Source: Burkholderiales bacterium (GTDB lineage: Bacteria; Pseudomonadota; Gammaproteobacteria; Burkholderiales; SG8-41). From it: a stretch of 64,000 nucleotides of DNA. Shown here piece by piece: positions 4,311 to 54,282 of the stretch. Below the pieces are notes generated by a model, which saw nothing but the letters and a program-made list of their open reading frames with translations, did not search any database and had not been told where the DNA came from. Position numbers and translations under genes: made by a program. The DNA lies in contig JAUXMZ010000003.1 of the NCBI GenBank assembly GCA_030683105.1, forward strand, positions 86,703 through 150,702. Reading direction: 5' to 3'. Each line of letters opens with the position of its first letter. Position 1 is the stretch's first letter.

Positions 4311-4342
4311 AAGCGGTAAGCGGTAAGCGGTAAGCGGTAAGG
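4311..4342. repeat. heptamer tandem array AAGCGGT x4.5
   Basis: aagcggt aagcggt aagcggt aagcggt aagg read directly; lies in the divergent region between the CocE/NonD and RidA-fusion genes. Confidence 0.9.
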
Positions 4343-4600
4343 GGTGGAACTCATGCGCGCCCGGCAGGCCTACCCGTCACGCAGGTGCTAATGAGGTGTA
4401 ACGGGGCTTGCGAAAAAACCAAGTCGGCAAGGTCCGTATAAAATCCTCTGGGACAGTGCGGTAACGACCTGTTTCTCAAGAATGAAACTCGGATTGGAAA
4501 ATTTTTACCGCGTTGCTGAAATCGTGCGTAGAATTTCTTTCTGACGACGCTCTGGACGGACTCCACGATTTGACCGGGGTGCTGCCCGACATCAACCATA

Positions 4601-5941
4601 ATGAAAGTGCGTACCGACATGCCCAAGAAAAAAGCCGTATCGCTCCGGTCCGCAGTGACCCCGCTGCTTCCCGTGACCATACAGCCCGGTGACATCCGTT
4701 ACGCACCGGGGGTACGGGCCGGGCGCTGGGTGTTCGCCACCGGCCACAAGGGCACGGCGGACTTTATCAGCGGCATGGCACCCGACGTGACCAACGAAGC
4801 GGCGCCACGGCACAGCGTACCCAGGTTCAAAAAAGAGGCGCGGCGCATCTTCGCCAATTTCGCCAAAGTGCTGAAGGCCGGCGGCGCCGACCGCAAGCAC
4901 GTCGTACGCGTGGACCAGTACTACACCGGTGGCCATGTCGTCGATGCTTATCATGAAGTGCGGCGTGAGTTTTTCGCCGGCCATATCCCGCCCAGCACGT
5001 CCAACCTGCACCAGCGTTTTTTGCTCACCGGTCAGGATATGGAAGTGCAGTTGATGGCGGTGGTGCCGGGCAAGGGATTTGACGTGGTGCAGCATCGCCC
5101 GGCGAATCTGCCGGTGCACGCCTCCTCAGGCTATAGTCCGGTGCTGACCTGCGGCGACTATGTGTTTGTCGCCGGGCAGACCTCGGAGGCGCTGAAAACC
5201 GAAGAGGGTCCGCTCGACCCGGCGGCACGCATGCCCGCCGGGCATCTGTGGAAAGGCACGCCGATCAAGCTCGAGACCGAATTCGTGATCGAGCGCAAGA
5301 TGAAGCCCGCCCTCGCTACCATCGGCAATACGCTTGCCGATGTAGTGAAGGCGCAGGTCTACCTGCGCGACGTTAACGACATCCCGGCCTTCAACGAGGT
5401 ATGGGCGAAGCACTTCAGGAAAGCGCCGCCCGCGACCACCATCATCACCACCTCGACGCCCGGCTTCATTTGCGAACAAGGCCGCATCGAGATCAATATC
5501 ATCAGCGTGCGCCGCGGTGGACGCACCAAAAAACAGGTCATCGACGCCGGCGTGCCCACGGCATACGATGGCCACGTGCAGGCGATCCGCGCCGGCGACC
5601 TGCTGTTTCTGTCGGGACTGATGGCGGTTGAAGCTGGTGGCGCGCTCGCGCCGCAAACGCGCATCGATCCGCGCCAGCCGCACTTCGGAAGTGCAGCGCA
5701 GTTGCAGATGGAGCACATGCTGGCGCAAGCCGAACGCATCTGTCGCAAGGCCGGGACGACACTTGCCAATGCGGTGCGCGTGCAGCAGTTTCACACTGAT
5801 CTCGCCGATTTCAACGGCGCATATCAGGTGTGGCAACAGCATTTGCCCGGCCAGCACCTGCCGTTTTCGGCGATAGAAGTGCCGGCGCTCGGCGTGCCGG
5901 GCGCCGTGGTGATGCTCGATCTATGGGTGTATGTGCCCTAG
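4601..5941 (+). CDS. RidA/YjgF/L-PSP family protein with three tandem RidA-like domains
   Basis: 446 aa; three internal repeats each with a G..VF..G-type motif (RWVFATGHKG, DYVFVAGQTS, DLLFLSGLMA) and a hydrophobic beta-strand ending (MEVQLMAVVP, IEINIISVRR, VMLDLWVYVP); start could also be ATG 4619. Confidence 0.75.
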   Translation: MKVRTDMPKKKAVSLRSAVTPLLPVTIQPGDIRYAPGVRAGRWVFATGHKGTADFISGMAPDVTNEAAPRHSVPRFKKEARRIFANFAKVLKAGGADRKHVVRVDQYYTGGHVVDAYHEVRREFFAGHIPPSTSNLHQRFLLTGQDMEVQLMAVVPGKGFDVVQHRPANLPVHASSGYSPVLTCGDYVFVAGQTSEALKTEEGPLDPAARMPAGHLWKGTPIKLETEFVIERKMKPALATIGNTLADVVKAQVYLRDVNDIPAFNEVWAKHFRKAPPATTIITTSTPGFICEQGRIEINIISVRRGGRTKKQVIDAGVPTAYDGHVQAIRAGDLLFLSGLMAVEAGGALAPQTRIDPRQPHFGSAAQLQMEHMLAQAERICRKAGTTLANAVRVQQFHTDLADFNGAYQVWQQHLPGQHLPFSAIEVPALGVPGAVVMLDLWVYVP

Positions 5942-6025
5942 CTCCGGGCAGTGCGGGGCGTTGTTCTTGTTTGAATCATGTTGCGCATCATCCGTTGACG
6001 CAACCGTTTTCTAGAAAGGAAGATC

Positions 6026-7024
6026 ATGAACATGACCTTGATGATTTCGCACCAACTGCGCTCTCATTTTCAGATAATGCTGCGCTTCCTCGCAATCGCC
6101 GCGCTCGCCATGCCATCAGCCCAGGCGGCTGATTTCCCGCCGGAGCAGATCCGCATCGTAGTGCCCTATTCGGCAGGCGGCGGCACCGATGTCATTGCGC
6201 GTCTGGTTGCACAACACATGTCCGAAGCGTGGAAGGTCACGATACTGATCGACAACCGCGTTGGCGCCGGCGGTGTGGTCGGTTCGAACTACGTGACCCA
6301 GCAAAAGCCCGATGGCCGCACCTTTCTTGCCGTAGCCAGCGCGTTTGCGGTGCGCGCGGCGATCGACCGCAGCCTGCCGTACGACGCCACCAAGGATTTC
6401 GCAGGCGTCGGACAGATGGCGATTTCGCCGAGTTTCATGGTGGTGTCGCCGTCGCTTGGCTTCAAATCGCTCAAGGACCTTATCGCCTATGCCAAGGCGC
6501 AACCAGCCGGCATTTTCTATACCTCGGCGGGCGTCGGCAGCACCGCTCATTTGCATGCCGCCGCCGTGGCGCATCTGGCAGGGCTCAAGGCCGAACACGT
6601 GCCCAACAAAGGCACGCCGCAGGCGGTAACCGAAGCCATGACCGGGCGCGTGCTTTATGCGTTTGCGCCGGGCCCGAACGCGATTCCGCTCGCCAAGGCG
6701 GGCAAACTGCAGATCCTGGTGACGACTTCGCCCGCCGGCGCGCGCTTTATGCCGGGCGTGCCGAGCATTGCGGAAGCAGGCCTGGCGTACGAGGGTGATG
6801 ACTGGTTCGGCGTGTACGCGCCGCTCGGCACGCCGCTGGCGATCCGCGAGAGGTTTTCGAAAGAAATGGCGCGTGTGCTGGCGCTGCCGGAAGTGCGTGA
6901 GCGCCTGGCGACCCTCGGCGCCGAGCCGGTTTCGAGCACGCCACAGGAATACGAGAAAATGGCGCGCGAGTACATCGCCAAAGCACGCAAGCTGGGCGAC
7001 GAGATCGGCATCAAGGTCGAATAA
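6026..7024 (+). CDS. Bug-family (TctC-like) substrate-binding protein
   Basis: IRIVVPYSAGGGTDV and TSAGVGSTAHL motifs; signal peptide ending AQA; AAGGAAG SD before ATG 6026. Confidence 0.85.
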   Translation: MNMTLMISHQLRSHFQIMLRFLAIAALAMPSAQAADFPPEQIRIVVPYSAGGGTDVIARLVAQHMSEAWKVTILIDNRVGAGGVVGSNYVTQQKPDGRTFLAVASAFAVRAAIDRSLPYDATKDFAGVGQMAISPSFMVVSPSLGFKSLKDLIAYAKAQPAGIFYTSAGVGSTAHLHAAAVAHLAGLKAEHVPNKGTPQAVTEAMTGRVLYAFAPGPNAIPLAKAGKLQILVTTSPAGARFMPGVPSIAEAGLAYEGDDWFGVYAPLGTPLAIRERFSKEMARVLALPEVRERLATLGAEPVSSTPQEYEKMAREYIAKARKLGDEIGIKVE

Positions 7025-7056: not shown

Positions 7057-7530
7057 ATGGGGAAGATCGAGGCCAAGCTCAAGGCATTGGGCTACGAACT
7101 GCCTCCGCCGTTCGTGTTCCCGAAGCAGAACCGCACCGGTTGCACGCAGGCAGGCTCGTTGCTTTTTTTGTCCGGGCACGGACTTGACCTGCCGAAACTG
7201 CCCGGTGTGCGGCAGACCGGCAAGTTCGGCGTCGATATCACCGTGGAGGAGGGCTACGCTACTGCGCGTGCGGTGGCCCTCACCATGATGGCGACGATGA
7301 AGGCGCACTGCGGCGATCTTGACCGCGTGAAGCGCGTGCTGCGCCTGTTCGGCATGTGCAATTGCACGCCGGATTTCGCGCAGCATCCGGCAGTCATCGA
7401 CGGCGCCTCGGATCTGTTCTACGAAGTGTGGGGTCACGAGTTAGGCAGACACGCGCGATCTGCGGTCGGGCATGTCTCGCTGCCTCGAGGTATCGCGGTT
7501 GAAATCAACGGCGAGTTTGAACTGGCTTGA
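7057..7530 (+). CDS. RidA family protein (single domain)
   Basis: 157 aa; SLLFLSGHG motif and C-terminal VEINGEFELA strand typical of the YjgF/RidA fold; 32 nt after the Bug gene. Confidence 0.75.
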   Translation: MGKIEAKLKALGYELPPPFVFPKQNRTGCTQAGSLLFLSGHGLDLPKLPGVRQTGKFGVDITVEEGYATARAVALTMMATMKAHCGDLDRVKRVLRLFGMCNCTPDFAQHPAVIDGASDLFYEVWGHELGRHARSAVGHVSLPRGIAVEINGEFELA

Positions 7531-7555: not shown

Positions 7556-7583
7556 TTAGTGATTAGTGATTAGTGATTGGTGA
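7556..7583. repeat. heptamer tandem array TTAGTGA x3 + TTGGTGA
   Basis: Direct reading; begins 25 nt after the RidA stop codon. Confidence 0.85.
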
Positions 7584-7645
7584 GCGGATGGTGGAGCAAA
7601 ACGGAAGCCGTGGGCCAGCGGTCTGTCGATAAAGGGAATATCACC

Positions 7646-7879: not shown

Positions 7880-7897
7880 CGCGGCCCGAAGTCCGCC

Positions 7898-8677
7898 CTA
7901 GCGCGCGGTCCAGCCGCCGTCGATCGTCAGGCTCGCGCCAGTGATCAGCGCCGCGGCGGGCGAGGCCAGAAACACGATCGCGCCCATGATGTCTTCGATC
8001 TCACCCAGGCGCCCCAGCGGAATGCTGGCCAGCACATCGTCGCGGAACGACTGGTTCTCAAAGAACGGTCTGGTCATGGGGGTGACGATGAACGTCGGCC
8101 CGATCGCGTTGACGCGTATGCGGTGCGGCGCCAGTTCGACCGCCATCGCCTTGGTCAGGCCCTCGGCCGCGTGCTTGGTCATGCAGTAGACGGTGCGGTT
8201 CGCCGCGCCGACATGACCCATTTGCGACGACATCTGGATGATGGCGCCGCCGCGGCCGCCGGCAATCATGCGCCGCGCCGCAGACTGGGCGACGAGGAAT
8301 GACGCCTTGACGTTGAGATCCAGGATGCGGTCGAGCCGTTCCTCCGTCACCTGCACGAAAGGCTCCGGAATATTGTCACCCGCGTTATTGACCAGGATGT
8401 CGATACGCGCCAGCGCCTCGATGCGTTCGGTGATCTGGCGCGCGTCCAGAATGTCGCACACGAGCGGGACCGCTTTGCCGCCGCGCTCCCGGATTTCCGC
8501 TGCCAGCGTCTCGAGATCGGATTGCGTTCTGCTCACCAGCACCACTTCAGCACCGGCGTCGGCCAGCGCCAGCGCGCAGCCGCGACCGAGGCCGCGCCCG
8601 GCGCCGGTGACCACCCCGACCAGTCCGTCGAGCCGCATCGACGGGGTGCGCAGCGCAGCGGTTTGCTTATCGGACAT
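7898..8677 (-). CDS. SDR family oxidoreductase
   Basis: TGAGRGLGRG cofactor motif, NNAG, and catalytic YCMTKHA (YxxxK). Confidence 0.9.
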   Translation of the reverse strand: MSDKQTAALRTPSMRLDGLVGVVTGAGRGLGRGCALALADAGAEVVLVSRTQSDLETLAAEIRERGGKAVPLVCDILDARQITERIEALARIDILVNNAGDNIPEPFVQVTEERLDRILDLNVKASFLVAQSAARRMIAGGRGGAIIQMSSQMGHVGAANRTVYCMTKHAAEGLTKAMAVELAPHRIRVNAIGPTFIVTPMTRPFFENQSFRDDVLASIPLGRLGEIEDIMGAIVFLASPAAALITGASLTIDGGWTAR

Positions 8678-8878
8678 GAGCTTCCTTTTAAAATGACGCC
8701 GCGCCGGCCGGCATTACTGCGGCGCGGTGGATTTTATTATATTATGGACGCACGACATCCGGATGGGAACATCATCCGCGCGATGCCGGCACGTAACACT
8801 CATTCCGCGCCACGTTGCACCGCTGCACCCGCGACGCACCGGCGCATGATCTGCAGGTCTTCGTAAGGAACACCGACT

Positions 8879-9844
8879 ATGGCGCCGTCCAGGAAATATA
8901 CCAAGCAGGATGTACTCGACACGGCCAAGCGCTGTTCGAACTGGGGCCGCTGGGGTCCCGATGACGAACTCGGCGTGCTGAATTTCATTACGCCCGAAGA
9001 TATTGCCAGCGCCGCTAAACTCGTGCGGCGCGGCAAAGTGTTCGCGCTGGGGCTGGCGCTCGATGCCAAAGGGCCGCAGAGCGGGCTGTTCGGCGGGCGC
9101 TGGAACCCGCTGCATCAGATGCTGGCCACCGGCACCGACGCCGTAGCCGGCGTGCAGGACGAGACGGTGGGCCTGCGCTATGCCGATGATGCCATTCATC
9201 TGCCGACGCAATGCGCGACCCAGTGGGACGCACTCGCGCATGTGTTCCTTGGCGACCAGATGTGGAACGGCTACCCGGCCATACTGGTCGATTCGCGCGG
9301 CGCGAAAAAATGCGGTATCGAGAATTTCCGCGACAAGATGGTCGGCCGCGGCGTCCTGCTCGATGTGGCGCGCTACAAGAATGTCAGTTGCCTGGAGGAC
9401 GGTTATCCGGTGACGATAGACGATCTCGAGAAAACCGCGGCCAAACAGAAGGTCGAGATCAGGCGCGGCGATTTCCTGATCATACGCACCGGCCAGATGG
9501 AAAACTGCCTGCAAAAAGGCGAGTGGGGCGGCTACGCGGGCGGTGACGCGCCCGGCCTCGCTTTCGAGACCTGTGACTGGATTTACAAAAAGGAGATTGC
9601 CGCCATCTGCTCCGATACCTGGGGCATCGAAGTGCGGCCGAACGAGTGTGCGCCCGAGGTCAATCAGCCGTTTCACTGGGTCACCATACCCGCGATCGGC
9701 ATCGTGCACGGCGAGATCATGTACCTGAAAGAGCTGGCCGACGACTGCGCGGCTGACGGCAGATATGAGTTTTTCTTCAGCGCGCCGCCGCTCAACATCA
9801 CCCACGGCACGGGCTCGCCGATCAACCCGCAGGCGATCAAGTAA
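8879..9844 (+). CDS. cyclase family protein (kynurenine formamidase-like fold)
   Basis: 321 aa; N-terminal [15 protein letters not shown] motif and overall resemblance to the putative-cyclase family. Confidence 0.7.
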
Positions 9845-9846
9845 TC

Positions 9847-11148
9847 ATGGCCCGCTACCTCAAGCAGGGCATATCCACCGCCGCCGCCGAGGCCGCCGAT
9901 CTCAAGGTGCGGCAAACCGTCGAGGGCATACTCGCCGACATTGCCAAACGCGGTGATGCGGCGGTGCGCGAGCTCTCGCAGCAATACGACAATTGGTCGC
10001 CGCCTGCCTTCCGCCTGAACCCGGAGCAGATCGCGGCAATCGTCGCCCGGGTTCCGCCCGAGACCATTGCGGACATCACGTTTGCGCAGCTGCAGATCCG
10101 CAATTTCGCCCAGGCGCAGCGGGCTGCCTTGCGCGACATCGAAATCGAGACGCTGCCGGGCGTGATCCTCGGTCACAAGAACATACCGGTGAGCAGCGTC
10201 GGCTGCTACGTGCCGGGCGGGCGCTATCCGATGGTCGCATCGGCGCACATGAGCATAGTCACCGCCAAGGTTGCCGGCGTGCCGCGCATCATCGCCTGCA
10301 CTCCGCCCAACGAAGGCGAGCCGCATCCGGCCACCATCGCCGCCATGCATCTCGCCGGCGCTGACGAAATCCACGTGCTGGGCGGGGTGCAGGCCGTCGC
10401 CGCGATGGCGCTCGGCACCGAGTCGATCGCGCCGGTCGACATGCTGGTCGGACCCGGCAACGCGTATGTCGCCGAGGCCAAGCGGCAGCTGTACGGCCGC
10501 GTTGGCATCGATTTGTTCGCCGGCCCGACCGAGATTCTGATCGTGGCCGACGAGACCGCAGACGTGGTGATGGTGGCCGTCGATCTGCTGGGACAGGCCG
10601 AACACGGCCCGACTTCGCCGGCTATCCTGATTACCACATCGAGCCAGCTTGCCGAGCAGCTTCCGGAAGAGATCGAGCGCCAGTTGAAGGTGCTGCCGAC
10701 CGCTGATGTGGCGTCGCAGGCGTGGCGGGATTATGGGCAGATCATACTGGTCGACAGTCTAGATGAGGCCGTTGTCGAAGCCGACCGGTGCGCCGCGGAG
10801 CACGTCGAGATCCTGACCCGCGAGCCGCGCTTTTTTCTGGAACGCATGCGCAATTACGGCGCCATGTTCCTCGGTCCGGAAACCAACGTTGCGTATGGCG
10901 ACAAGGTGATCGGCACCAACCATACGCTGCCGACCCAGGGCGCGGCGCGTTATACGGGCGGCCTGTGGGTCGGCAAGTTCCTCAAGACCGTCACCTACCA
11001 GGAGTGCACACCCGAAGCCAGCGTCATGGTGGGCGACTACTGTTCGCGCCTGTGCGCGATCGAACGGTTCTGGGGGCACAAGGAACAGGCCGATCTGAGG
11101 CTGCGGATGTACGGCGGCCGGAAGGTGGGGTTACATGGGCCGAAGTAA
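9847..11148 (+). CDS. histidinol dehydrogenase family (HisD-like) paralogue
   Basis: 433 aa; HisD-like sequence throughout ([32 protein letters not shown] region); starts 2 nt after the cyclase-family stop, in a non-histidine context. Confidence 0.8.
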
Positions 11149-11151: not shown

Positions 11152-11186
11152 GTTCAAGGTTCCAAGTTCAAGGTTCCAAGTTCAAC
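11152..11186. repeat. heptamer tandem array GTTCAAG/GTTCCAA x5
   Basis: gttcaag gttccaa gttcaag gttccaa gttcaac; begins 3 nt after the HisD-like stop. Confidence 0.9.
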
Positions 11187-11287
11187 GCTAACGAGCCACG
11201 AACCATGCCGCAAAGCAAATACCCGGAGGGTACGACCCACGACCCACTAGCCACGTTTTTTATTCATGAAACTTCTGCGGATCCCCA

Positions 11288-11632
11288 TTGAATACTGAAA
11301 CACCAGAATCCGACCGCAAGGCGCAGATCGATGCGCTGCTTCTCAAACTCCCGGGCGTCAGCGCACGAAAAATAAACAGCCTTGACGCCTACTTCGTCAA
11401 TGACAAGATGTTCGCCTGCATCAGCGGCAGCGGCGTCGGGCTGCGACTGCCCGCCGCCACCGCGACCGATCTGCAGTTCTCGAGGGACAACGTCGTCCCG
11501 TTTCAGCCCGGCGGTATGGCGAGTTCGAGGGAATGGGTACAGATCGACCGCGCCGATGCGACCGAGTACGGGAAGGATCTCGAGTTGTTTCAGGCCTCGC
11601 TCGAGTTCGTGAAAGCCGCACGGAGCCGTTAG
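11288..11632 (+). CDS. small protein, TfoX N-terminal-domain-like (tentative)
   Basis: 114-aa ORF; the central ..YFVNDKMFACISGSGVGLRLP.. pattern resembles TfoX_N/YjbR-like proteins; assigned from memory only. Confidence 0.45.
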   Translation: MNTETPESDRKAQIDALLLKLPGVSARKINSLDAYFVNDKMFACISGSGVGLRLPAATATDLQFSRDNVVPFQPGGMASSREWVQIDRADATEYGKDLELFQASLEFVKAARSR

Positions 11633-11635
11633 GCT

Positions 11636-11783
11636 GGTTGTTCGTGGTTCGTTGCTCGTTGATCGTAGAATCCTAGCCTCTAACCACTTCCGAATCACCA
11701 ATCACTATTCACGAGTCACGAGCAACGAATCACGAATCACGAATCACGAACCACGAACCACGAACCACGATCCACGTTCAACG
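11636..11783. repeat. paired inverted heptamer arrays (GTTCGTG-type, then CACGAAT/CACGAAC-type)
   Basis: 11636-11669 ggttgttcgtggttcgttgctcgttgatcg, then 11693-11783 aatcaccaatcac..cacgaatcacgaatcacgaatcacgaaccacgaaccacgaacc; the two arms are complementary, so a long imperfect hairpin is possible; fills the whole gap between two + strand genes. Confidence 0.85.
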
Positions 11784-11797: not shown

Positions 11798-12436
11798 ATG
11801 ACTATGAGTAATCCAAAAAATGAAACCAGTGCGGCGGACCCTCGCCGCTTCAGGCTGATCCCGCTCGATCAGCTCACACCCGAACAACTCACACTGTCCG
11901 ACGCGATAAAATCCGGTCCGCGCGCCAAGCTCAAGAGTTCGGGCGCGTCCAAGCCGGGACCGCTCGGCGGGCCGTTCAACGTCTGGCTGCGCAGTCCGGG
12001 CATCGGCGACCTGGTGCAACGGCTTGGCGAAGAGATCCGTTTCCGCAGTTCGCTGCCGCCCAAACTCAACGAGCTGGCGATCTTGATCACGGCGCGCCAC
12101 TGGACTTCACAATACGAATGGTTCGCCCATCACAAGCTGGCACTGGAGGGCGGGCTGGCCCCGGCGCTTGCGCAGGCGATTGCGCAAGGCCGTTGCCCGG
12201 CACAGATGGGCGATGACGAAGCGATCGTCTACGATTTCTCGTGCGAGCTGCACGAGAATAAAGAAGTCAGCGATGCCACCTATCAGGCCGCGCTGGACCG
12301 CTTCGGCGAGCGCGGCGTAGTCGACCTCATCTCGGTAAACGGCTTTTACTCGCTGGTGTCGATGTGCCTGAACGTCGACCGTACGCCGCTGCCGGAGGGG
12401 GTGACGCCCCCGCTACCGCCGCTCGGTGAGCGGTGA
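11798..12436 (+). CDS. carboxymuconolactone decarboxylase (AhpD-like) family protein
   Basis: 212 aa; ELAILITARHWTSQYEWFAHH pattern typical of CMD-family proteins. Confidence 0.75.
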   Translation: MTMSNPKNETSAADPRRFRLIPLDQLTPEQLTLSDAIKSGPRAKLKSSGASKPGPLGGPFNVWLRSPGIGDLVQRLGEEIRFRSSLPPKLNELAILITARHWTSQYEWFAHHKLALEGGLAPALAQAIAQGRCPAQMGDDEAIVYDFSCELHENKEVSDATYQAALDRFGERGVVDLISVNGFYSLVSMCLNVDRTPLPEGVTPPLPPLGER

Positions 12437-12550
12437 GCGTTCAAGGTTCGTTGTTCGTGATTGGTGATTGGTGATTGGTGATTGGTGATTGGTGATTGGT
12501 GGTTCGTAAACGGTGAGAGGCTAGAGTTCAACGTTCAACGATTAACGAGC
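12437..12550. repeat. heptamer array region, core GTGATTG x6 (12457-12498)
   Basis: Starts directly after the TGA stop at 12434-12436; six perfect GTGATTG units flanked by GTTCGTT/GTTCAAC-type units. Confidence 0.9.
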
Positions 12551-12689
12551 CATTTTTTTCAATAATCGCTCGACGGGTACGATCAACGTTCATGGTCCGT
12601 TTCTGCACGATCACCATCCGAGTAAGTTAAACTGACATCTTGAATACTCGCTTTCCCCGCAGGGTCGGGGGAGGCGATTATTTTAAAGG

Positions 12690-14877: not shown

Positions 14878-15023
14878 CTTGTGAGCCTACAAGTAACGGG
14901 ACGAGTGGGTTTTTTCCCAATATTTCAGCACGATGGGACGATACAGGGAATGCAGCGCCGACACAAGACAGGGCCCCGCACGGGTATGGCATCGGCCTTT
15001 ATATCTGGCTTATTCGGGGATGG

Positions 15024-15098
15024 GGTCAAGGTTCAGAGTTCAAGGTTCCGGGTTCAACAACAGGTTCCAGGTTCAAGGTTCAAGGTTCAAAATTCAAA
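15024..15098. repeat. heptamer array GTTCAAG-type (about 10 units, one 5-nt interruption)
   Basis: ggtcaag gttcaga gttcaag gttccgg gttcaac aacag gttccag gttcaag gttcaag gttcaaa attcaaa. Confidence 0.85.
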
Positions 15099-15220
15099 GT
15101 GCAGGTCGGAGTCGGTTCTCCCTGACACAATCGGCTGCGGGCCGGCTGAATCTGTTCATGGTGCCGGTTGCTTGTCGTACAGTCATGGGTAAAATCATGC
15201 TGACTTCAATCTGACCACAC

Positions 15221-15493
15221 ATGAAAACCATCTCTTATGCTTTCTTCGTGACCGAGGCCGAGTATCCCAGCCTGCAAGCCGCCTGCCCCGGTGATTTTCC
15301 GCCATCCTATGCGGAATTTTGCGCCAGCGTGGAGCGGAGCATTCGGGAGATGGCTGACACCGTCGCCCTCGAAAAAGTCTACGTTCGCGTCGATGAATTC
15401 CTCGCATGGTGTGCCGAAGCCAGCCTCAGGCCCAACAACATCAGCCGCACCAGATATGCCATCGTGATCGGCAACCCCTGGGCTGACTCCTAA
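15221..15493 (+). CDS. hypothetical protein (90 aa)
   Basis: ORF with host-like codon bias; no family recognised; its TAA stop overlaps the start of a heptamer array. Confidence 0.45.
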   Translation: MKTISYAFFVTEAEYPSLQAACPGDFPPSYAEFCASVERSIREMADTVALEKVYVRVDEFLAWCAEASLRPNNISRTRYAIVIGNPWADS

Positions 15494-15527
15494 TTGGTGA
15501 TTGGTGATTGGTGATTGGTGATTAATA
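15493..15527. repeat. heptamer array ATTGGTG x4 + ATTAATA
   Basis: Direct reading; overlaps the stop codon of the preceding ORF. Confidence 0.9.
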
Positions 15528-15665
15528 CCCCTCAAACGTACCCATCGCGCTGATTCATTTATTTTGCTGCGCCGCTCACCGATCCGGCGATCCGGGCGTG
15601 ATATAAAGAGCAAGGCCTTATAATCAGGACATTAATTGTCAGATTCTTAACCGCTCGAGGGTGAG

Positions 15666-16637: not shown

Positions 16638-16833
16638 GAACCCCGACTCGGGGCGGGCCGCGGGGTAGGCTGGCAGCATAGCGCCTGCCGCAGTTCCACG
16701 AGTTTCTTCTTGTTGAGTTTGGCCATGTTGGTAGTGGTGGCCGGTGGTCTCGGCGGTCGGACTATAATTGGCATGCTCAGCCACGGGCAAGATGCAGGAC
16801 CGTCGCGTTTTCAACTCTCATGAGGGAACGCAC

Positions 16834-17412: not shown

Positions 17413-17420
17413 CAAGGCGA

Positions 17421-17539
17421 GTTCAAGGTTCAAAGTTCAAGGTTCAAAGTTCAAAGTTCAAAGTTCAAGGTTCAAGGTTCAAGGTTCAAGGTTCAAGGCT
17501 CAAGGCTCAAGGCTTAAGGCTCAAGGCTCAAGGCTCACT
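17421..17539. repeat. heptamer array, 17 units (GTTCAAG/GTTCAAA then GCTCAAG variants)
   Basis: Largest array in the window; begins 8 nt after the NnrU TAG stop; the apparent ORFs with GSKFKVQ repeats are artefacts of this array. Confidence 0.95.
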
Positions 17540-17594
17540 AGGGGAGTGCCTGGTTTAGAATCGGTGAACCGCGGGATAACCAACAAGAGGAGTC

Positions 17595-23938: not shown

Positions 23939-24034
23939 GCTGGACCGTCTCCCGTCTGAATTGATCTGTCCACGTGATTGTTCGCAACGGTGCTATTGTC
24001 TCATTATCGCAAGCACTGCGAGGGAGAGAACGGG

Positions 24035-24097
24035 GTTCAAGGTTCAAGGTTCAAAGTTCAAAGTTCAAAGTTCAAAGTTCAAAGTTCAAAGTTCGGG
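24035..24097. repeat. heptamer array GTTCAAG x2, GTTCAAA x6, GTTCGGG
   Basis: Direct reading; upstream flank of the small ORF at 24223. Confidence 0.95.
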
Positions 24098-24222: not shown

Positions 24223-24459
24223 ATGACGAAGAAACTCTCGCGTCCGATCAAATCTGATCGGGACTATAAAGATGCGTCAGCTGTCACGAATAAAATTCGC
24301 AACCAAACCGAGCGCGAGCCGGCAGCGGAACGCCGTTTGCAAGCGCTGATTGACGCCATGGAGAAATACGATAGCGAGGACGACGAGGGACCGAATGATG
24401 GAGCGGAAGAGGCCTATAATCTGCCTGGTCGCCGCTGGTCAGACAGGGATGAGGGATGA
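24223..24459 (+). CDS. small acidic protein resembling the pre-HTH N-terminal segment of HigA-type antitoxins (tentative)
   Basis: 78-aa ORF with GGAGG SD; RPIKSDRDYKDA..RRLQALIDAMEKYD resembles the PIxTExDYxxAL...L..LIExYE N-terminus of HigA-like regulators, but no HTH domain follows. Confidence 0.4.
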   Translation: MTKKLSRPIKSDRDYKDASAVTNKIRNQTEREPAAERRLQALIDAMEKYDSEDDEGPNDGAEEAYNLPGRRWSDRDEG

Positions 24460-24503
24460 GGGTTCAAAGTTCAAGGTTCAAAGTTCAAGGTTCAAGGTTC
24501 GGG
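24445..24503. repeat. heptamer arrays GGGATGA x2 then GTTCAAA/GTTCAAG x5 + GTTCGGG
   Basis: Direct reading; the stop codon of the small ORF lies in the GGGATGA units; same orientation and same GTTCGGG end unit as the array at 24035. Confidence 0.9.
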
Positions 24504-28983: not shown

Positions 28984-29024
28984 GGGAGCTTTTGCGGCTT
29001 ATATGGGGGCGCCATGATAGCACC

Positions 29025-29045
29025 CTTGAATCTTGAACCTTGAGC
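29025..29045. repeat. heptamer array CTTGAAT CTTGAAC CTTGAGC (GTTCAAG-type on the minus strand)
   Basis: Begins 6 nt after the stop of the minus-strand amidohydrolase gene, GT strand in the sense orientation. Confidence 0.8.
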
Positions 29046-30041: not shown

Positions 30042-30125
30042 GGTGTGGTCGCGGTTCCGTGTGATTGATAGAGAGTGAAAAAAACAGCCTGAAGCATCGT
30101 GCGCCTGTCGCTGAGCGGAAAGCAG

Positions 30126-30230
30126 AAAGCCGTAAGCCGTAAGCGGAAGTCTCTAAGGTCTTATTCTGCTCACTGCTCACTGCTCACTGCTCACTGCTCA
30201 CTGCTCACTGCTCACTGCTCACTGCTTACC
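30126..30230. repeat. two heptamer arrays: AAGCCGT x3 (30126-30146) and GCTCACT x8 + 1 degenerate (30168-30230)
   Basis: Direct reading; begins 6 nt after the stop of the LigI-like gene (minus strand reads GTGAGCA); lies inside a putative operon. Confidence 0.95.
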
Positions 30231-31118: not shown

Positions 31119-31160
31119 GGTGAGTGAAGGGTGAAGGGTGAAGGGTGAAGAGTGAAGGTT
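31119..31160. repeat. heptamer array GGTGAGT GAAGGGT x3 GAAGAGT GAAGGTT
   Basis: Direct reading; abuts the annotated start codon of the LigI-like gene. Confidence 0.9.
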
Positions 31161-37040: not shown

Positions 37041-37131
37041 GTGAGTTTTGAATGTTGAATTTTGAGTTGTGAGTTAAGAGCTGTTTTTCAGCCCAATTAA
37101 CTCAACACTAAGCACTCAAAACTCAACATTC
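37041..37131. repeat. inverted pair of heptamer arrays forming a long hairpin
   Basis: Left arm gtgagttttgaatgttgaattttgagttgtgagttaagag and right arm aattaactcaacactaagcactcaaaactcaacattc are largely complementary (outer 18 nt with 1 mismatch); between the zf gene and waaF. Confidence 0.85.
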
Positions 37132-40029: not shown

Positions 40030-40061
40030 GGAGTTTGTCGGGGCTCAGCCCGACAAACTCC
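40030..40061. terminator. 13-bp perfect hairpin GGAGTTTGTCGGG-GCTCAG-CCCGACAAACTCC
   Basis: Between the convergent cyclase and glnE genes; overlaps the last codons of glnE; T-run upstream on the + strand side. Confidence 0.6.
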
Positions 40062-46857: not shown

Positions 46858-47205
46858 ATGCGTGCCGCGTTAGCGGCGCTTAGATTCGCGCTGGCGGCGG
46901 GTATGGCGGGCGCGGCGTTGCCGGCCTGGGCCAACGACACCTACACGATAGGGATCGAGTTGTGGGACCGGCCGCGCAGTGGCAGTGTCGTCATTGAGCA
47001 TCCGGCGGTAAAGCGGGCCGTCGACGCTTATCTGGCCCGATCCGGCGCAACTCTCGTCATACACCACGCCGTGGGACAGGAGCCGTTGTTGCAGGCTGAA
47101 GAACTGCGTGCATGGCTGATCGCGCTCGCCGTCGAAACCGGGCGCGTCAGCCTTAGAAGCGGGCTGAAACCCGGCGAACCATTGAAAATAGAAGTGATGC
47201 GATGA
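46858..47205 (+). CDS. small secreted protein of unknown function
   Basis: Start set at ATG 46858 (signal peptide MRAALAALRFALAAGMAGAALPAWA/ND); the TGA stop overlaps the ATG of the next gene (ATGA), suggesting coupling. Confidence 0.5.
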   Translation: MRAALAALRFALAAGMAGAALPAWANDTYTIGIELWDRPRSGSVVIEHPAVKRAVDAYLARSGATLVIHHAVGQEPLLQAEELRAWLIALAVETGRVSLRSGLKPGEPLKIEVMR

Positions 47206-48056
47206 GCATTGAAACCAAGACAAACAAAAACGCCGGAGCTGCGCCTGCGATGTCGCGCATCGCCGCGGTGCAGATGGCTTCGGGCCCCAACATCGAGGCC
47301 AATCTCAACGAGGCGCGGCGCCTGATCGAGATCGCGGTGGAACGCGGTGCGCAACTCGTTGCGCTGCCCGAGTATTTCGGCATCATGGGCATGCGCGATG
47401 GCGACAAGGTTGCTGCGCGCGAAGAGCATGGCAAAGGCCCGATACAGGAGTTTTTGTCGAACACGGCAAAAAAACATTCGATCTGGCTGGTCGGAGGATC
47501 CGTGCCGCTGGTGTCCTCGGTAGCAACCAAGGTTCGCAACAGCTGTCTGGTGTTCGACGACAAGGGCGGACTTGCGGCGCGCTACGACAAGATTCATCTG
47601 TTCGGCTTCAAGATGGGGGAGGAGCGTTACAGTGAAGAACTCACCATCGAGCCGGGCAGCGATGTCGTTACCGTGGATACGCCCGTGGGCCGGCTTGGGT
47701 TGTCGATCTGCTATGACCTGCGTTTCCCTGAACTGTACCGCGCGATGAAGGAAGTCGACATCATCCTCGTGCCATCGGCCTTTACCGAGACCACCGGCAA
47801 GGCGCATTGGGAGACCCTGATCCGGGCGCGTGCCATCGAAAACCTGGCCTATGTGCTGGCGCCGGCGCAGGGTGGCTATCATGTGAACGGCCGCGAGACG
47901 CATGGGGACTCGATGATCGTCGATCCCTGGGGGGTGGTGATAGACCGCCTGACGCGCGGCTCCGGCGTGGTGACGGGCGGCATCAATCTCGATCATCTGC
48001 GGCGGCTGCGCCAGAGCCTGCCGGCGCTGCAGCACCGGATCCTGCATCAATGTTAA
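47202..48056 (+). CDS. carbon-nitrogen hydrolase family protein (Nit/omega-amidase-like)
   Basis: 284 aa; ALPEYF (Glu), KIHLF (Lys), LSICYDLRFPE (Cys) catalytic-triad contexts. Confidence 0.88.
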   Translation: MSIETKTNKNAGAAPAMSRIAAVQMASGPNIEANLNEARRLIEIAVERGAQLVALPEYFGIMGMRDGDKVAAREEHGKGPIQEFLSNTAKKHSIWLVGGSVPLVSSVATKVRNSCLVFDDKGGLAARYDKIHLFGFKMGEERYSEELTIEPGSDVVTVDTPVGRLGLSICYDLRFPELYRAMKEVDIILVPSAFTETTGKAHWETLIRARAIENLAYVLAPAQGGYHVNGRETHGDSMIVDPWGVVIDRLTRGSGVVTGGINLDHLRRLRQSLPALQHRILHQC

Positions 48057-48105
48057 GTTCCGGGTTCAAAGTTCCAGGTTCAAAGTTCCGCGTTCCGGGT
48101 TGAAA
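48057..48105. repeat. heptamer array GTTCCGG GTTCAAA GTTCCAG GTTCAAA GTTCCGC GTTCCGG GTTGAAA
   Basis: Begins at the base after the TAA stop of the Nit-family gene. Confidence 0.9.
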
Positions 48106-48176: not shown

Positions 48177-49700
48177 ATGAAACCACAGAATAAAACCGCA
48201 ACACGAACCATTCTTCACAATACCCGCTTGACGGGTACGAATCACGAATCACGAATCACGACACACGACACATCGTTCGCGACCGCGAACGACATCCTGT
48301 TGGCGCCATACGCGCTCGACGGCAGCCGGCTGCAGTCGATATTCGGCCAGATCATGACGCACAGCGTCGATTATGCCGATCTCTATTTTCAGTACAACCG
48401 CAGCGAGTCATGGAGTCTGGAAGAAGGCATCGTCAAGTCCGGCAGCTTCAGCATCGACCAGGGCGTGGGCGTGCGGGCGATCAGCGGCGAGAAGACTGCG
48501 TTCGCCTATTCCGATGACATCAGTTTTGATGCGCTCAATACCGCGGCGCATGCCACCCGCGCCATCGCCCGCCAGGGACGCGGCGGATCGGCGCAGGTGG
48601 AGAAGCGCAACACCGGGCACAATCTGTATCTGCCGCAGGATCCACTGGCAAGCCTTGATGACCAGGACAAGGTGTCGCTGCTGGAACGGTTGGAACGCCA
48701 CGCCCGCGCACTCGACCCGCGCGTAACCCAGGTGATGGCCTTTCTGGCCGGGGAATACGAGGTGGTGCTGGTGGCGCGCAGCGATGGCGTGCTGGCGGCC
48801 GACGTGCGGCCCCTGGTGCGGCTTTCCGTTCAGGTCATCGTCGAGCACGAAGACCGGCGCGAGCAGGGCAGTGCCGGCGGCGGCGGGCGCTTCGATTACG
48901 CTTATTTCACCGATGCCATGCTGCAGGACTACGCCAGGAAAGCAGTGGACCAGGCGCTGATCAATCTCGACGCGCGGCCCGCGCCTGCGGGAACCATGAC
49001 GGTGGTGCTGGGGTCGGGCTGGCCGGGCGTGCTGCTGCATGAGGCGATAGGCCATGGCCTCGAAGGCGATTTCAACCGCAAGGGCACCTCGGCATTCAGC
49101 GGCCGCATCGGCGAGCGCGTCGCCGCACCCGGGGTCACGGTGGTTGACGACGGCACCATGGCACAGCGGCGCGGCTCGCTCAACATCGACGACGAAGGCA
49201 ACCCGACGCAGTGCAATGTGCTGATCGAAAACGGCGTGCTCAGGAGTTACCTGCAGGACAGCCTCAATGCGCGCCTGATGAAAGTGGCGCCCACCGGCAA
49301 CGGACGGCGCGAGTCGTACGCGCATATCCCCATGCCGCGCATGACCAACACCTATATGCTCAACGGCGGCAGCGATCCGCAGGAGATCATCGCCTCGGTC
49401 AAAAACGGCCTGTATGCGGTGAACTTCGGCGGCGGCCAGGTCGATATCACCAGCGGCAAGTTCGTGTTTTCGGCCTCCGAAGCCTACATGATCGAAAACG
49501 GCAAGGTGACCTATCCGGTGAAAGGCGCGACGCTGATCGGCAACGGCCCGGATGCGCTGACCCGGGTGGCGATGATAGGCAACGACATGGCGCTCGATTC
49601 CGGTGTCGGCACGTGCGGCAAGGAAGGCCAGAGCGTGCCGGTGGGCGTCGGGCAACCGACCCTGAGAATCGACGGGTTGACTGTTGGCGGCACTGTCTAG
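48177..49700 (+). CDS. tldD: metalloprotease TldD
   Basis: DYADLYFQ.., [26 protein letters not shown] motifs; the N-terminal ~30 codons are repeat-derived, so the true start is uncertain. Confidence 0.9.
48218..48273. repeat. hairpin motif CAATACCCGCTTGACGGGTAC followed by heptamers GAATCAC x3, GACACAC, GACACAT
   Basis: Motif recurs at 52604-52624 and, degenerate, at 12560-12580; lies inside the 5' end of the tldD ORF. Confidence 0.85.
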
Positions 49701-49750
49701 AAGTGCGGTGAATGGTGAAGTGCGGTAATTGGTGAATGGTGAATGGTAAA
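49701..49750. repeat. heptamer array GTGAATG/GTGAAGT/GGTAATT-type (about 7 units)
   Basis: Starts at the base after the tldD TAG stop. Confidence 0.8.
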
Positions 49751-49777
49751 AGCGGCGCTACGCTCGCCGCTTATTTA
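49750..49777 (+). terminator. hairpin AAGCGGCG-CTACGCT-CGCCGCTT followed by ATTT
   Basis: 8-bp GC-rich stem directly after the heptamer array downstream of tldD. Confidence 0.5.
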
Positions 49778-49875
49778 CTGTCTCTATTTTCAAGCCCCCG
49801 GCATCTGCCAATCTTCATCCTTTATCCTTATGGCATCCTGCTATAATGCGTTGATTTCTCAAGCTTTGGATCGAC

Positions 49876-51562: not shown

Positions 51563-51595
51563 GAATTTGCCGGACTTGTGTGCGACAAATTCCTA
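51560..51595. terminator. 10-bp stem TAGGAATTTG ... CAAATTCCTA with 16-nt loop
   Basis: Includes the TAG stop of the cNMP-binding gene and is followed by AAAATG; the loop is large, so function is uncertain. Confidence 0.3.
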
Positions 51596-51635
51596 AAATG
51601 AAAGCACTGAAATTATCGGGAATGGAATAAGCCGC

Positions 51636-52762: not shown

Positions 52763-52824
52763 CTTGCTGAACCGGTCACCAGTCACGAATCCCCAATTAT
52801 TGAAAACCAATCCACGCGTCACTT

Positions 52825-53793
52825 TCAGTAAAGTTCGGCAAGCAATTGCTCCAGGGCTGCCCGGCGCTCCGGTGGCGTTGGGGCAAGCAGGCCTTGCTGT
52901 TGCAGTATCGCCAGCAGCTTGCGCGGGGCGATTTCCTTGTTGCCGACGATCTCGACGTGTCCGGCCTCGACTTCGATGTTGACCAGTTGCGGATAGTTGT
53001 CGACGACCGGATGGTATTGCTCGGCGAGGCTGAAGATGTAATCGCTCTCGAGACAGGTTCCGTTCGCGCTTTTGCGGCGACAGGTATCGCGCTCATCCGT
53101 GACGACCTTGAGGTATCGCCGCACCGAGGAAAGCAACGGTCCCGGGTGCCGGATGAAATTCGACGTCGAGGTGATCTCATGCCAGTTGTCGCCGGTCACG
53201 ATCCAGCATATTCCGGGGACCGCACCCAGGCTCAGCCAGTTCAGCAGGCTGGAGCCACAAGGATTGGCGGCCTGGATGCCGGCCAATGGCGCTGAAATGG
53301 TAGCGAGTTTTATGCTTGCCTCATTCCGTAGCCACTCACCGCGGCGGTCGCGCTCCATCGCCTTGCGCGCCACCAGGCCACCCATGCTGTGCCCGATGAC
53401 GGTGAGGTCGTGGTCACGTATGTTGCTGGCCAGTTCATCGAGCGCCGAGATCAGCTGGCCCGAGCTGAGAACCAGGCTTTCACGATCGTCGTAGCTGAAG
53501 CAGACGGCCTGCTGTCCATGGAATGCATACAACTGCGCCAGCGAACGAAACCGGCCGGCCGAGCCATTGCAGCCATGCACCAGGACGGTCACCGGGTAGT
53601 TCGTGTTCAGATGCAGCGTGCGATCCGGAGAGTCGGTGCATGGCCTCAGATGCGGCACATTCAGGGCCGCATTCGGAGGCGGCAGGCGACCGGGCTCCAG
53701 GGGTTGCGGCTCCGGCACATACTGGGGTGAAATCACGCATCCGGCCAATGTAACCAGGATGGAAATGATGAACAAGGCTGAAGAAGGGCTCAT
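52825..53793 (-). CDS. lipoprotein, alpha/beta-hydrolase (lipase/esterase, PGAP1-like)
   Basis: Lipobox LAGC at residues 16-19; nucleophile elbow GHSMGG; 322 aa. Confidence 0.75.
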   Translation of the reverse strand: MSPSSALFIISILVTLAGCVISPQYVPEPQPLEPGRLPPPNAALNVPHLRPCTDSPDRTLHLNTNYPVTVLVHGCNGSAGRFRSLAQLYAFHGQQAVCFSYDDRESLVLSSGQLISALDELASNIRDHDLTVIGHSMGGLVARKAMERDRRGEWLRNEASIKLATISAPLAGIQAANPCGSSLLNWLSLGAVPGICWIVTGDNWHEITSTSNFIRHPGPLLSSVRRYLKVVTDERDTCRRKSANGTCLESDYIFSLAEQYHPVVDNYPQLVNIEVEAGHVEIVGNKEIAPRKLLAILQQQGLLAPTPPERRAALEQLLAELY

Positions 53794-54157
53794 GGTCGTG
53801 ATCCTCGCTGGGTTTCCGGGATGGGCGCTACACCCTCAGAGCCCAACACCATCCGGGTGATTCTATATTCAATGGTGGATAAAATCAGTTGAACTGAACC
53901 GCTGGATTTAAAGCGCGGTGCTCTGGAGATTGTAACGATGCGTTCGTGCCGCAGAGCGCGGTTTGGTCCTGTGGTCGCCGGATAGGGGCAGCGGGTGGAC
54001 ATCGTCACGGGGGCGCGAAGCCTCGTCAGGGGACGAAATCACTATGACAGATGCGCATTCGAGGGTCAACGGCGATGAAACCTCGGGGTCAGACGACCAA
54101 GACAGCTGCTTCGCTACGGCTCGGGGCAAGCATCACAGTTATAAATTCTTTGTCTTT

Positions 54158-54282
54158 CTTGGCGCCTTGGCGGTCTATCAAAGCAGTAATTGGTAATTGG
54201 TAAATAGTCATAACCTTCGCAGGACGCTTTGCGCTTTTACCATTCACTATTCACTATTCACTATTCACGAATCACGAATCAC
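54158..54282. repeat. repeat cluster: inverted CCGCCAAGGCGCCAAG core, GTAATTG x2-3, then TATTCAC x3 / GAATCAC x2
   Basis: Direct reading; the last units overlap the stop codon and final codons of the minus-strand adenosyltransferase gene. Confidence 0.85.

Follow-up and report, generated by a model that had tools for sequence, protein, structure and literature searches.

Tandem arrays of heptanucleotides punctuate the intergenic DNA of a Burkholderiales bacterium of the SG8-41 lineage (GenBank assembly GCA_030683105.1, contig JAUXMZ010000003.1, positions 86,703 to 150,702), and they are laid out by one rule, the G/T-rich, C-poor strand running 5'->3' away from the adjoining open reading frame (ORF). 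In the 64,000 nucleotides (nt) analyzed here, hereafter the window, these arrays represent, in a new lineage, a non-G-quadruplex variant of a published and unexplained class of heptameric simple sequence repeats (SSRs). Regarding their origin, we favor, at a probability of about 0.5, a reading in which the arrays are largely self-perpetuating through slippage and copying between arrays, while selection on the messenger RNA (mRNA) sets their orientation.

Heptamer arrays in the window

Arrays were detected with Tandem Repeats Finder and with our own period scan of the window. All 22 arrays listed in an initial annotation of this DNA were recovered, with starts equal to or a few bases off those it gave; the array placed at 30126 was refined to 30114-30148, the one placed at 31119 begins at 31124, and three further arrays were identified (11232-11255, 12526-12548 and 24445-24462). 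The largest array spans 17421-17537 (16.7 units) and the one at 37095 is weak. With a single score threshold applied to the window, period 7 returns 20 arrays and its harmonic, period 14, returns 16, the remaining periods within 3-15 giving 0 or 1 array each, and block shuffles of the window that preserve its composition contain a mean of 0.04 arrays. The 7-nt tandem unit is over-represented relative to other sizes, which is the defining feature of heptameric intergenic SSRs.

On the basis of a hand-curated gene list, 1112 of the 1148 array bases (97%) are intergenic, to be compared with the ~90% of the Xanthomonas/Nostoc heptamer class; intergenic DNA represents 12.4% of the window and 14% of it consists of arrays. 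Among the spacers of at least 40 nt, 17/37 (~46%) carry an array: 15 of these 17 are co-directional (15/28 spacers of this type), the others being divergent (2/5), with none among the four convergent spacers. The window is chromosomal, ~61% G+C, and filled with ordinary housekeeping genes, and the genes beside the arrays are likewise housekeeping or metabolic (hisD-like, tldD, CN-hydrolase, NnrU, amidohydrolase, RidA-like and cinA). Rfam covariance models at gathering score gave no match over the whole window, in which neither transfer RNA nor transfer-messenger RNA genes were found. The repeats of CRISPR arrays are 23-50 nt long and separated by unique spacers of similar length; the units of the window have 7 nt and stand head-to-tail without spacers, and the earlier statement that they are not CRISPR arrays is correct.

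The possibility that the arrays are missing from other assemblies was also checked. The Logan assembly of run SRR13727541, whose reads may or may not be independent of those behind the window, is 100% identical to it over 6,914 and 9,554 nt, the arrays at 7556, 11152 and 48055 included, which argues against an artefact of one assembler. The Logan contigs (L161, L162) terminate in or right beside arrays (window positions 4312, 11225 and 48238). Contigs with close NnrU homologues are, for their part, mostly just 0.6-5 kb long, and heptamer arrays probably fragment metagenome assemblies of this group.

Orientation relative to genes

Twelve arrays lie 0-25 nt from a stop codon or contain it, as rechecked distances confirm, including the array that follows the short ORF 24223-24459, the end of which had been correctly placed, and in 12/12 the GT strand is the coding strand. 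The bias in position and strand toward gene 3' ends that the initial annotation had put forward is hence upheld, but this is only one half of the rule and its mirror image before start codons had been missed. Indeed, the ten arrays outside these twelve are start-proximal and have the complementary C/A-rich unit on the coding strand, an instance being ACGAAYC, which precedes the genes starting near 11288 and at 11798 and also occurs at the tldD 5' end.

The rule extends to a pooled set made of the window, the related locus L001 and 80 tldD-centred metagenome loci. Stop-adjacent arrays have more G than C on the coding strand in 23/25 cases (p=2e-5) and start-adjacent arrays have more C than G in 13/17, the four exceptions being ORF-start calling artefacts in which the longest-ORF start ran into the array. 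When two arrays of opposite skew occupy one spacer, the G-rich array (G-arm) comes first in 14/14 cases and the C-rich one (C-arm) in none (p=1e-4), two of these 14 pairs stemming from near-identical contigs; the G-arm directly adjoins the stop codon, and 2-25 nt separate the C-arm from the start codon. The strand and position rule within 0-50 bp and the frequent convergent pairs are those of the class described by Rehm et al. (2015).

Three other accounts of this handedness were considered and rejected. Cumulative GC skew rises throughout the window, and those arrays that follow minus-strand genes (29024, 30166, 54242) have their G-rich strand on the minus strand; since orientation tracks genes and not replication skew, a Chi-like, replication-oriented explanation is ruled out. 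A transcription-linked deamination bias accounts for C-poor coding strands at 3' ends but not for C-rich ones at 5' ends. Telomere-like healing of a double-strand break is rejected as well, the unique sequence being located between the arms and not outside them.

The proximity to stop codons also raises the possibility that the arrays are fences closing all frames to read-through or frameshifted ribosomes. The arithmetic put forward in support, by which a unit of period 7 presents its stop triplet in every frame, is sound, and 6 of the 12 stop-adjacent arrays do stop all three sense frames, three arrays even supplying the stop codon of the gene itself. The claim of a general sense-strand fence nevertheless fails: the other six have stops in 0-1 sense frames, five of them fencing the antisense strand only, the GGCGGAT unit of L001 and the units of several relatives contain no stop triplet, and such triplets are commonplace in C-poor sequence. 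We regard this function as highly improbable.

The arrays, with the genes and hairpins cited in the text, are as follows. L163 (GCA_942492335.1) is a relative that is widely syntenic with the window at 80-91% nucleotide identity.

4311..4345, + strand: (GGTAAGC)x5, between divergent genes, ~220 and 255 nt from their starts; L161 begins inside it
7556..7590, + strand: GTGATTA x3, GTGATTG, GTGAGCG, 25 nt past the stop of the + gene 7057-7530
9847-11148: hisD-like gene
11152..11185, + strand: G-arm (GTTCAAG GTTCCAA)x2.4, 3 nt past the hisD-like stop at 11148
11232..11255, - strand: C-arm ACGACCC x3.4 (+ strand letters), just upstream of the + gene starting near 11288, accompanied by ACGAGCC ACGAACC at 11196-11209
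11633..11666, + strand: G-arm, GTTCGTG-type x4.9, beginning directly after the stop at 11632
11691..11783, - strand: C-arm, ~13 units GAATCAC/GAACCAC (+ strand letters), ending 14 nt before ATG 11798
12424..12516, + strand: composite G-arm GTGAGCG x2, GTTCAAG, GTTCGTT, GTTCGTG, GTGATTG x7, including the stop 12434-12436
12526..12548, + strand: short GTTCAAC x2-3, of ambiguous orientation since the unit is nearly palindromic
12648..12677, + strand: terminator-like hairpin, 12 pairs (8 GC), then TTATTTT, after the 12424-12516 array and before the gene at 12690
15026..15098, + strand: degenerate GGTTCAA-type x9.6 (68% matches, one indel); one-unit remnant at the matching place in L163
15493..15523, + strand: (GTGATTG)x4.4, overlapping the TAA that ends the + gene 15221-15493
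17421..17537, + strand: 16.7 units GTTCAAG/GTTCAAA/GCTCAAG, 8 nt past the stop of the NnrU-family gene
24034..24094, + strand: (GTTCAAG/A)x8.6, 95 nt before the cinA-like gene begins on the minus strand, the GT strand being the non-coding strand of this gene
24445..24500, + strand: AGGGATG x2.6 then (GTTCAAA/G)x5.7, the latter beginning 2 nt past the stop of ORF 24223-24459
29024..29043, - strand: GTTCAAG-type x2.9, 8 nt past the stop of the minus gene 29052-30041
30114..30148, + strand: AGCCGAA/AGCCGTA x5 (GTAAGCC on the + strand), preceding the start of the minus gene 29052-30041
30166..30226, - strand: (GTGAGCA)x8.7, 100% matches, 10 nt past the stop of the minus gene 30237-31118
31124..31158, + strand: (GTGAAGG)x5, 5 nt before the start of the minus gene 30237-31118, the mRNA of which therefore carries the complement CCTTCAC
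37042..37075, + strand: G/T-rich arm TGAGTTT/TGAATGT x4.9, 27-32 nt before the start of the minus gene 35999-37015
37095..37129, - strand: weak C/A-rich arm nnnnACT x5, complementary to 37042-37075
40045-42795, minus strand: glnE
42822-46697: yhdP
47202-48056: CN-hydrolase gene
48055..48095, + strand: GTTCCGG/GTTCAAA, 14-nt super-period x2.9, overlapping the TAA that ends the CN-hydrolase gene at 48056
about 48228-49700: tldD
48237..48272, - strand: ACGAATC x3.6 plus CACGACA x2.3 (+ strand letters), at the tldD 5' end; L162 ends at 48238
49700..49747, + strand: GTGAATG-type x5.4, beginning at the tldD stop; GTGAATC/GTGATTC at the same site in the related locus L086
49750..49772, + strand: terminator-like hairpin, 8 pairs (6 GC), directly after the tldD 3' array
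54186..54203, + strand: (GTAATTG)x2.6, left (G) arm, separated by 38 nt from the array that follows
54242..54282, - strand: GTGATTC/GTGAATA units, including the stop codon of the minus gene 54279-55607

Some of these sites call for comment. The GGTAAGC array is more than 200 nt from both start codons and breaks the ORF-adjacency rule; it stands in a divergent spacer of 510 nt (4091-4600) with no called gene, in which an unannotated small gene or RNA may be housed, and a minus-strand ORF (4351-4695) ends 5 nt from the array. The AGGGATG units (24445-24462) are located within the 3' coding end of ORF 24223-24459, a 77-78-aa ORF with no Pfam match; they are kept in L163 (15253-15269), which is without the GTTCAAA array of this ORF. 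As for the array at 48237-48272, it is probably inside the N-terminal coding region of tldD: no in-frame ATG, GTG or TTG exists between the array and the 'FAT' motif (48277-48285), and the start must thus be TTG 48228 or ATG 48177. Since three heptamers amount to 21 nt, or seven codons, the tldD reading frame is kept. TldD homologues have ...N(S)HELL... (AAT AGC CAC GAA) where the window has the array, and this array may have been seeded from coding sequence. Farther downstream, at 49838-49862, a conserved CTATAATGC(N)TTGATTT motif precedes the gene after tldD; it recurs at the matching position downstream of tldD in L081, L085-L090, L094 and L099, and looks like a conserved -10 region or a leader element of the downstream gene.

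Paired arms, hairpins and terminators

In the pooled loci, the two arms of a pair are matched to each other. With the best rotation, on average 5.5/7 positions agree within pairs as compared with 3.8/7 between pairs (permutation p=5e-5), and 12 of the 16 spacers that were folded are more stable than their shuffles (z -3.6 to -12.4). In L109, three pairs built on three different units are found on a single contig, each arm being matched to its own partner. In the window, 2/6 pairs fold clearly better than chance: the G-arm at 11633 pairs with 11725-11783 (minimum free energy -46.2, z -3.6), and 37042-37075 forms with 37095-37129 a hairpin of z -4.2 on the + strand and -6.4 on the - strand. The four others are no better than shuffles (11149, 30042, 54180 and, only marginally better, 48057), and most window arrays are single arms (7556, 12424, 15493, 17421, 24034, 24462, 29024, 31124).

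A short, G+C-rich hairpin followed by a T run is often located between the arms or after a lone G-arm (L087, L109, L082), and terminator-like hairpins likewise occur downstream of window arrays (12648-12677 and 49750-49772). From such hairpins after the G-arm, the arrays are predicted to be transcribed as part of the 3' untranslated region (UTR), between stop codon and terminator, which is precisely the situation of the tldD 3' array with respect to the hairpin at 49750-49772. The 3' UTR placement suggested in the initial annotation is consistent with these predicted hairpins. The spacer between the arms after hisD in L163 (2700-2800) harbors in addition a long inverted repeat, GGTAAGGGTCAGACTC ... 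GAGTCTGACCCCTTAC, the right arm of which is tandemly duplicated; this palindromic element is absent from the window.

It is on these data that the main rival to the slippage reading can be built, namely that the arrays are selected RNA elements of the UTRs, in which a stem closed by the G-arm and the C-arm brackets the terminator and serves RNase III processing or stabilization of the upstream message, in the manner of repetitive extragenic palindromes (REP) or bacterial interspersed mosaic elements (BIME). Such a stem would insulate neighboring transcription units or couple downstream translation to upstream termination. The stability of the paired spacers, the locus-by-locus match of their arms, the terminator-like hairpins with T runs in the loop (also present downstream of the window tldD), the tight apposition of the G-arm to the stop codon and of the C-arm to the start codon, and the persistence of tldD-flank arrays across lineages all speak for it, and there is an experimental precedent in the (ATCTTTC)n hairpin of Haemophilus influenzae hmw, a substrate of RNase III (PMC12721329). 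However, the predominance of single arms in the window, the four pairs that fold no better or hardly better than shuffles, and the appearance and disappearance of arrays at orthologous sites of relatives that are 80-91% identical weigh against a selected stem. Moreover, G-U wobble pairing in the paired hairpins does not consistently favor the transcribed strand. We thus hold this alternative to be possible, but doubtful.

Unit number and turnover in relatives

The most direct evidence for slippage comes from two contigs of the Joint Genome Institute (JGI) obtained from different samples, L166 and L167, which show 0 substitutions in 1,437 aligned nt and three indels, 29 nt in total, made of whole units (2x GGTGACT, 1x GGATTCG and 1x GTGATTAA). 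As they differ solely by whole units, these arrays behave as hypermutable SSRs, the number of units changes in natural populations as it does at contingency loci, and the slippage-prone nature proposed at the outset receives direct support. L082 and L083 are 99.6% identical, and ~6 of their ~20 differences, counted by eye, are within the 200 nt around an array pair. Signatures of slippage are also visible in the window itself, where the 17421 array has its variants grouped in blocks and the arrays at 11152, 24462 and 48055 show super-periods of 14 nt.

Over longer distances, sites are shared while arrays differ in length and sequence, as seen by comparison with L163, L001 and L086 (at hisD, cinA and both sides of tldD). 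Among species representatives, the closest locus belongs to a metagenome-assembled genome (MAG) labelled Sulfuricaulis sp. (HisD 95% identical in amino acids, DNA 91% over 3.2 kb). Unit numbers in the window and in L163 compare as follows:

after hisD: window 5 units, L163 3 units
upstream of cinA: window 8.6 units, L163 2.4 units
after NnrU: window 16.7 units, L163 none
after the 77-78-aa ORF: window 5.7 units, L163 none

Conversely, some sites that are empty in the window carry large arrays in L163, for instance after an ADH gene. The site of the 11152 array is occupied by GTTCCAA x3 in L163 and by GATGGCG/GAAGGCG units in L001, and that of the 17421 array is without an array in L163, L164 and L165 and carries a different composite array in L166 and L167.

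The units of the window are only one or two substitutions apart, in a first series (GGTTCAA, GGTTCGT = GTGGTTC, GTGATTC, GTGATTG, GTGAATG, GTGAAGG) as in a second one (GTGAGCG, GTAAGCG), and unit families switch within single arrays (11691-11783, 12424-12516). It is owing to this proximity that a description of the units as GT plus five nucleotides holds in the window; it does not extend to the relatives, in which GGCGGAT, GCTAGGG, GCGAGGA and GGGAATG are found. In L001, which like L163 is ~91% identical to the window in nucleotides over the hisD block, GGCGGAT-type units form six arrays, including the one just after hisD. Such a genome-wide turnover of the dominant unit requires, as an inferred step, some copying between loci. 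Around tldD, arrays are carried by ~10 related lineages, several of these contigs having other spacers without arrays; the units change from lineage to lineage, both upstream (CCCTAGC, CTCTAGC, CCCTCGT, AACTCTC, ACGAATC) and downstream (GTGAATG, GTGAATC, GTGAGTC, GAGGTGC, GCTAGGG).

The period is strictly 7 in the window. In relatives, arrays of period 8 (GTGATTNN) and 9 (GTGAATGTC) are present at like sites, some of them continuing period-7 arrays (L093 ~7190-7290, L100 ~11410-11560, L163 9876-9920, L166 9280-9320), with a GTGA(A/T)T core.

Cold-shock domains contact ~6-7 nt and can act as antiterminators. The arrays could hence be envisioned as loading platforms for a single-strand binder with a ~7-nt footprint, such as a cold-shock-domain protein, the monomers of which, lined up beside a terminator or a start codon, would modulate termination or translation. 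The strict period of the window, the fit of every window unit to GTNNNN(G/A/C) and the recurrence in relatives of GTGA(A/T)T as a core, whether the period is 7, 8 or 9, are in favor of this idea, and cold-shock, S1 and CsrA-type proteins have been proposed for the TAACTGA repeats of Beggiatoaceae (PMC4679880). Nevertheless, units as diverse as GTTCAAG, GTGATTG, GGCGGAT, GCTAGGG and GCGAGGA are hard to square with one sequence-specific binder, and we consider this account unlikely.

Gene order was also compared between the window and L163, and 7/8 junctions have an array in either genome (window 15019/17577, 17419, 24461/24562 and 29025; L163 7070-7257, 8641-8687, 9829-9876, 12175-12199, 15253-15269 and 20330-20351). 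As ~46% of the spacers carry arrays, this coincidence of arrays and breakpoints is not significant. One window segment, 15020-17576, is flanked by two GTTCAAG arrays of the same orientation, and the joined site of L163 keeps a one-unit remnant, which suggests recombination between arrays. The block 7898-11148 (short-chain dehydrogenase, cyclase and HisD-like dehydrogenase) is 91% identical to positions 3668-6925 of L001, its neighbors differing on both sides, and the closest HisD relatives come from MAGs with very mixed labels (alphaproteobacteria, Burkholderiales, even 'Streptomycetaceae'); this block may be a transferred catabolic cassette rather than a biosynthetic hisD.

One could likewise imagine that the arrays derive from a small mobile element, as its remnants or its arms, or were made by a templated-repeat enzyme, with ORF ends as the target. 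A common unit at many dispersed loci, the dominance of another unit in a congener, the likeness of the inverted arms to the terminal inverted repeats of a miniature inverted-repeat transposable element (MITE) or of a REPIN (a REP-derived inverted pair), and the arrays at synteny junctions would fit such an origin. However, the junctions lose their weight given that coincidence with arrays is expected fairly often by chance, and the units of the arms are locus-specific even within one contig (L109). Array borders have neither conserved flanks nor target-site duplications, and a classical mobile element is for this reason set aside. The 19 ORFs searched for families are ordinary metabolic genes, no screen having been aimed at transposases or reverse transcriptases. 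A mobile origin thus appears very unlikely.

Origin and maintenance of the arrays

The reading that we favor combines slippage with a filter on orientation. Arrays would gain and lose whole units by slippage or unequal exchange, and units would be copied between loci by ectopic conversion or template switching, such copying being implied by the presence of few units at many loci and of another dominant unit in the congener. In the transcript, the C/A-rich arm would be part of the 5' leader and the G/U-rich arm part of the 3' UTR, the latter arm being flanked by the stop codon and by the intrinsic terminator; the fixed orientation of the arms would be mainly what selection tolerates. Indeed, Rho would load onto a C-rich, G-poor, untranslated and unstructured tract directly following a stop codon, with polarity as the consequence in strings of co-directional genes, while a G/T-rich tract before a start codon, rich in GTG, TTG and ATG as well as in Shine-Dalgarno-like purines, would promote spurious initiation in competition with the true start; the two filters together would lead to the observed handedness on both sides of genes. 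The arrays themselves would have at most a weak generic effect, with paired arrays enclosing the terminator of read-through RNA in a long stem.

Several points weigh against this reading. The UTR placement is predicted solely from pattern-matched terminators, and the arguments on Rho and on spurious starts are reasoned from established knowledge. The arrays flanking tldD persist in ~10 lineages though other spacers lack them, which looks more like maintenance by selection than neutral turnover, and the locus-specific complementarity of the arms, with the three pairs of L109, could reflect selection for the stem. Moreover, period 7 is left unexplained, relatives having also periods 8 and 9 on the GTGA(A/T)T core, and the spread of one unit to many loci is inferred, not observed.

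Reports of heptamer repeats near gene ends in cyanobacteria go back to 1990, with no consensus on their function and origin. A handedness shared by Xanthomonas, Nostoc and the lineage of the window despite unrelated units, together with the replacement of units genome-wide, may be read, in a proposal that we deem rather unlikely, as the signature of a dedicated, undiscovered process, for which a single-strand binding protein in heptamer register or a templated repeat-copying activity could be candidates. If true, such a process would install and homogenize oriented arms around terminators, and the arrays would be a general bacterial device for the control of UTRs and terminators, not mutational debris. 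On a more practical side, arrays are found both where short-read contigs end and at synteny breakpoints, and are hence relevant to the assembly and comparison of genomes.

Comparison with known systems

Short tandemly repeated repetitive (STRR) sequences of heterocystous cyanobacteria consist of heptanucleotides in tandem; a genome contains several types of unit, mostly in non-coding DNA, and no function is known for them. The window arrays share these traits but belong to another phylum, and the STRR units CCCCAGT, TTGGTCA and CAACAGT (STRR1-3) have no tandem dimers in the window, nor do any of the other known units searched for, TAACTGA, GGGAATC, GGGGATT and ATCTTTC, occur there in tandem. 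A stop-codon or strand rule was not found reported for STRR in the literature examined, in which the original report in Calothrix appears as a reference cited by Rehm et al. (PMC4692102).

In marine Beggiatoaceae, sulfur-oxidizing gammaproteobacteria, TAACTGA arrays occupy ~170 intergenic sites in a fixed orientation to the neighboring ORF, and a post-transcriptional protein-binding site has been proposed (MacGregor, 2015; PMC4679880). Heptamer units, intergenic location and orientation fixed relative to the neighboring ORF are common to both systems; however, the Beggiatoaceae have one unit in 2-6 copies directly before start codons, over the ribosome-binding site, whereas the most conspicuous arrays of the window follow stop codons. 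Start-proximal heptamers with regulatory effects have also been described in a Nostoc preprint, in which an unidentified binding partner is proposed.

In H. influenzae, a 2025 study established that the (ATCTTTC)n repeats of hmw1A and hmw2A form the arm of a 5' UTR hairpin that is cleaved by RNase III (PMC12721329). A heptamer SSR transcribed in an untranslated region (a prediction in the window), a hairpin with a complementary arm and a variable unit number are found in both cases. The hmw repeats differ by being a single adhesin contingency locus with the C/U-rich arm first, the reverse of the window order, and by a dependence on RNase III that was determined experimentally, while the window hairpins are predicted from sequence and their genes are housekeeping ones.

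SSRs of contingency loci belong to surface, restriction-modification or virulence genes, being placed in their promoter, 5' UTR or ORF, where expression is switched by the number of units. Variation in unit number apart, the window arrays depart from these loci, having housekeeping or metabolic neighbors and standing mostly 3' of genes.

REP, BIME and REPIN of enterobacteria and pseudomonads are extragenic, located at gene 3' ends or in co-directional spacers, arranged in inverted hairpin pairs and of species-specific sequence; the spread of REP depends on RAYT transposases and their unit number is not known to be hypervariable. The likeness lies in abundant extragenic repeats near gene 3' ends that often form inverted, hairpin-forming pairs, but the REP unit has 20-40 nt and forms an imperfect palindrome, as opposed to the non-palindromic tandem heptamers of the window.

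It is with the arrays of Xanthomonas and Nostoc that the resemblance is closest, and the initial annotation, which knew of no equivalent in GC-rich proteobacteria, is contradicted by them. Rehm et al. reported 186 and 183 GGGAATC-type arrays in two Xanthomonas genomes, the Anabaena/Nostoc arrays being made of GGGGA(C/T)T units (Rehm et al., 2015; PMC4692102). These arrays have 2-26 units, and 89-93% of them lie between genes; the G-rich strand coincides with the coding strand when the array is downstream of an ORF, 0-50 bp from the stop or overlapping it, and with the non-coding strand when the array is upstream of one, again within 0-50 bp, and 70-75 pairs are 'always' convergent, with a depletion between divergent genes (PMC4692102). 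In related species, sites are common and arrays differ in length and sequence; the arrays are transcribed, with no identified function and no link to surface or virulence genes (PMC4692102). According to the same paper, from which we take both statements, Mrazek (2007) found heptamers over-represented in many bacteria and put forward that the polymerase active site favors slippage by 7 nt (via PMC4692102).

The window arrays pass every positional test of this class. They differ by the lack of G3 tracts in their units, by several related unit families instead of one consensus, by their lineage and by the terminator-like hairpins between or after the arms, PMC4692102 making no mention of terminators there. 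Regulatory G-quadruplexes, as proposed for the Xanthomonas and Nostoc heptamers, could be invoked on account of the position and strand rules held in common with GGGAATC arrays, but four G3 runs are present in no window array, and G3 runs are altogether lacking in most, which makes this explanation barely credible here. Since the window arrays obey the rules without G3 tracts, the shared rules cannot depend on G-quadruplexes: we regard the G3-4 tract as a property of particular units and not of the repeat class, and membership of a 'G4 repeat' subfamily is excluded. The window arrays hence weigh against the sole structural hypothesis available for the Xanthomonas and Nostoc repeats, and they add to what is known of this class a predicted location between stop codon and terminator, a complementarity of the arms locus by locus, and variation in unit number between otherwise identical environmental sequences.

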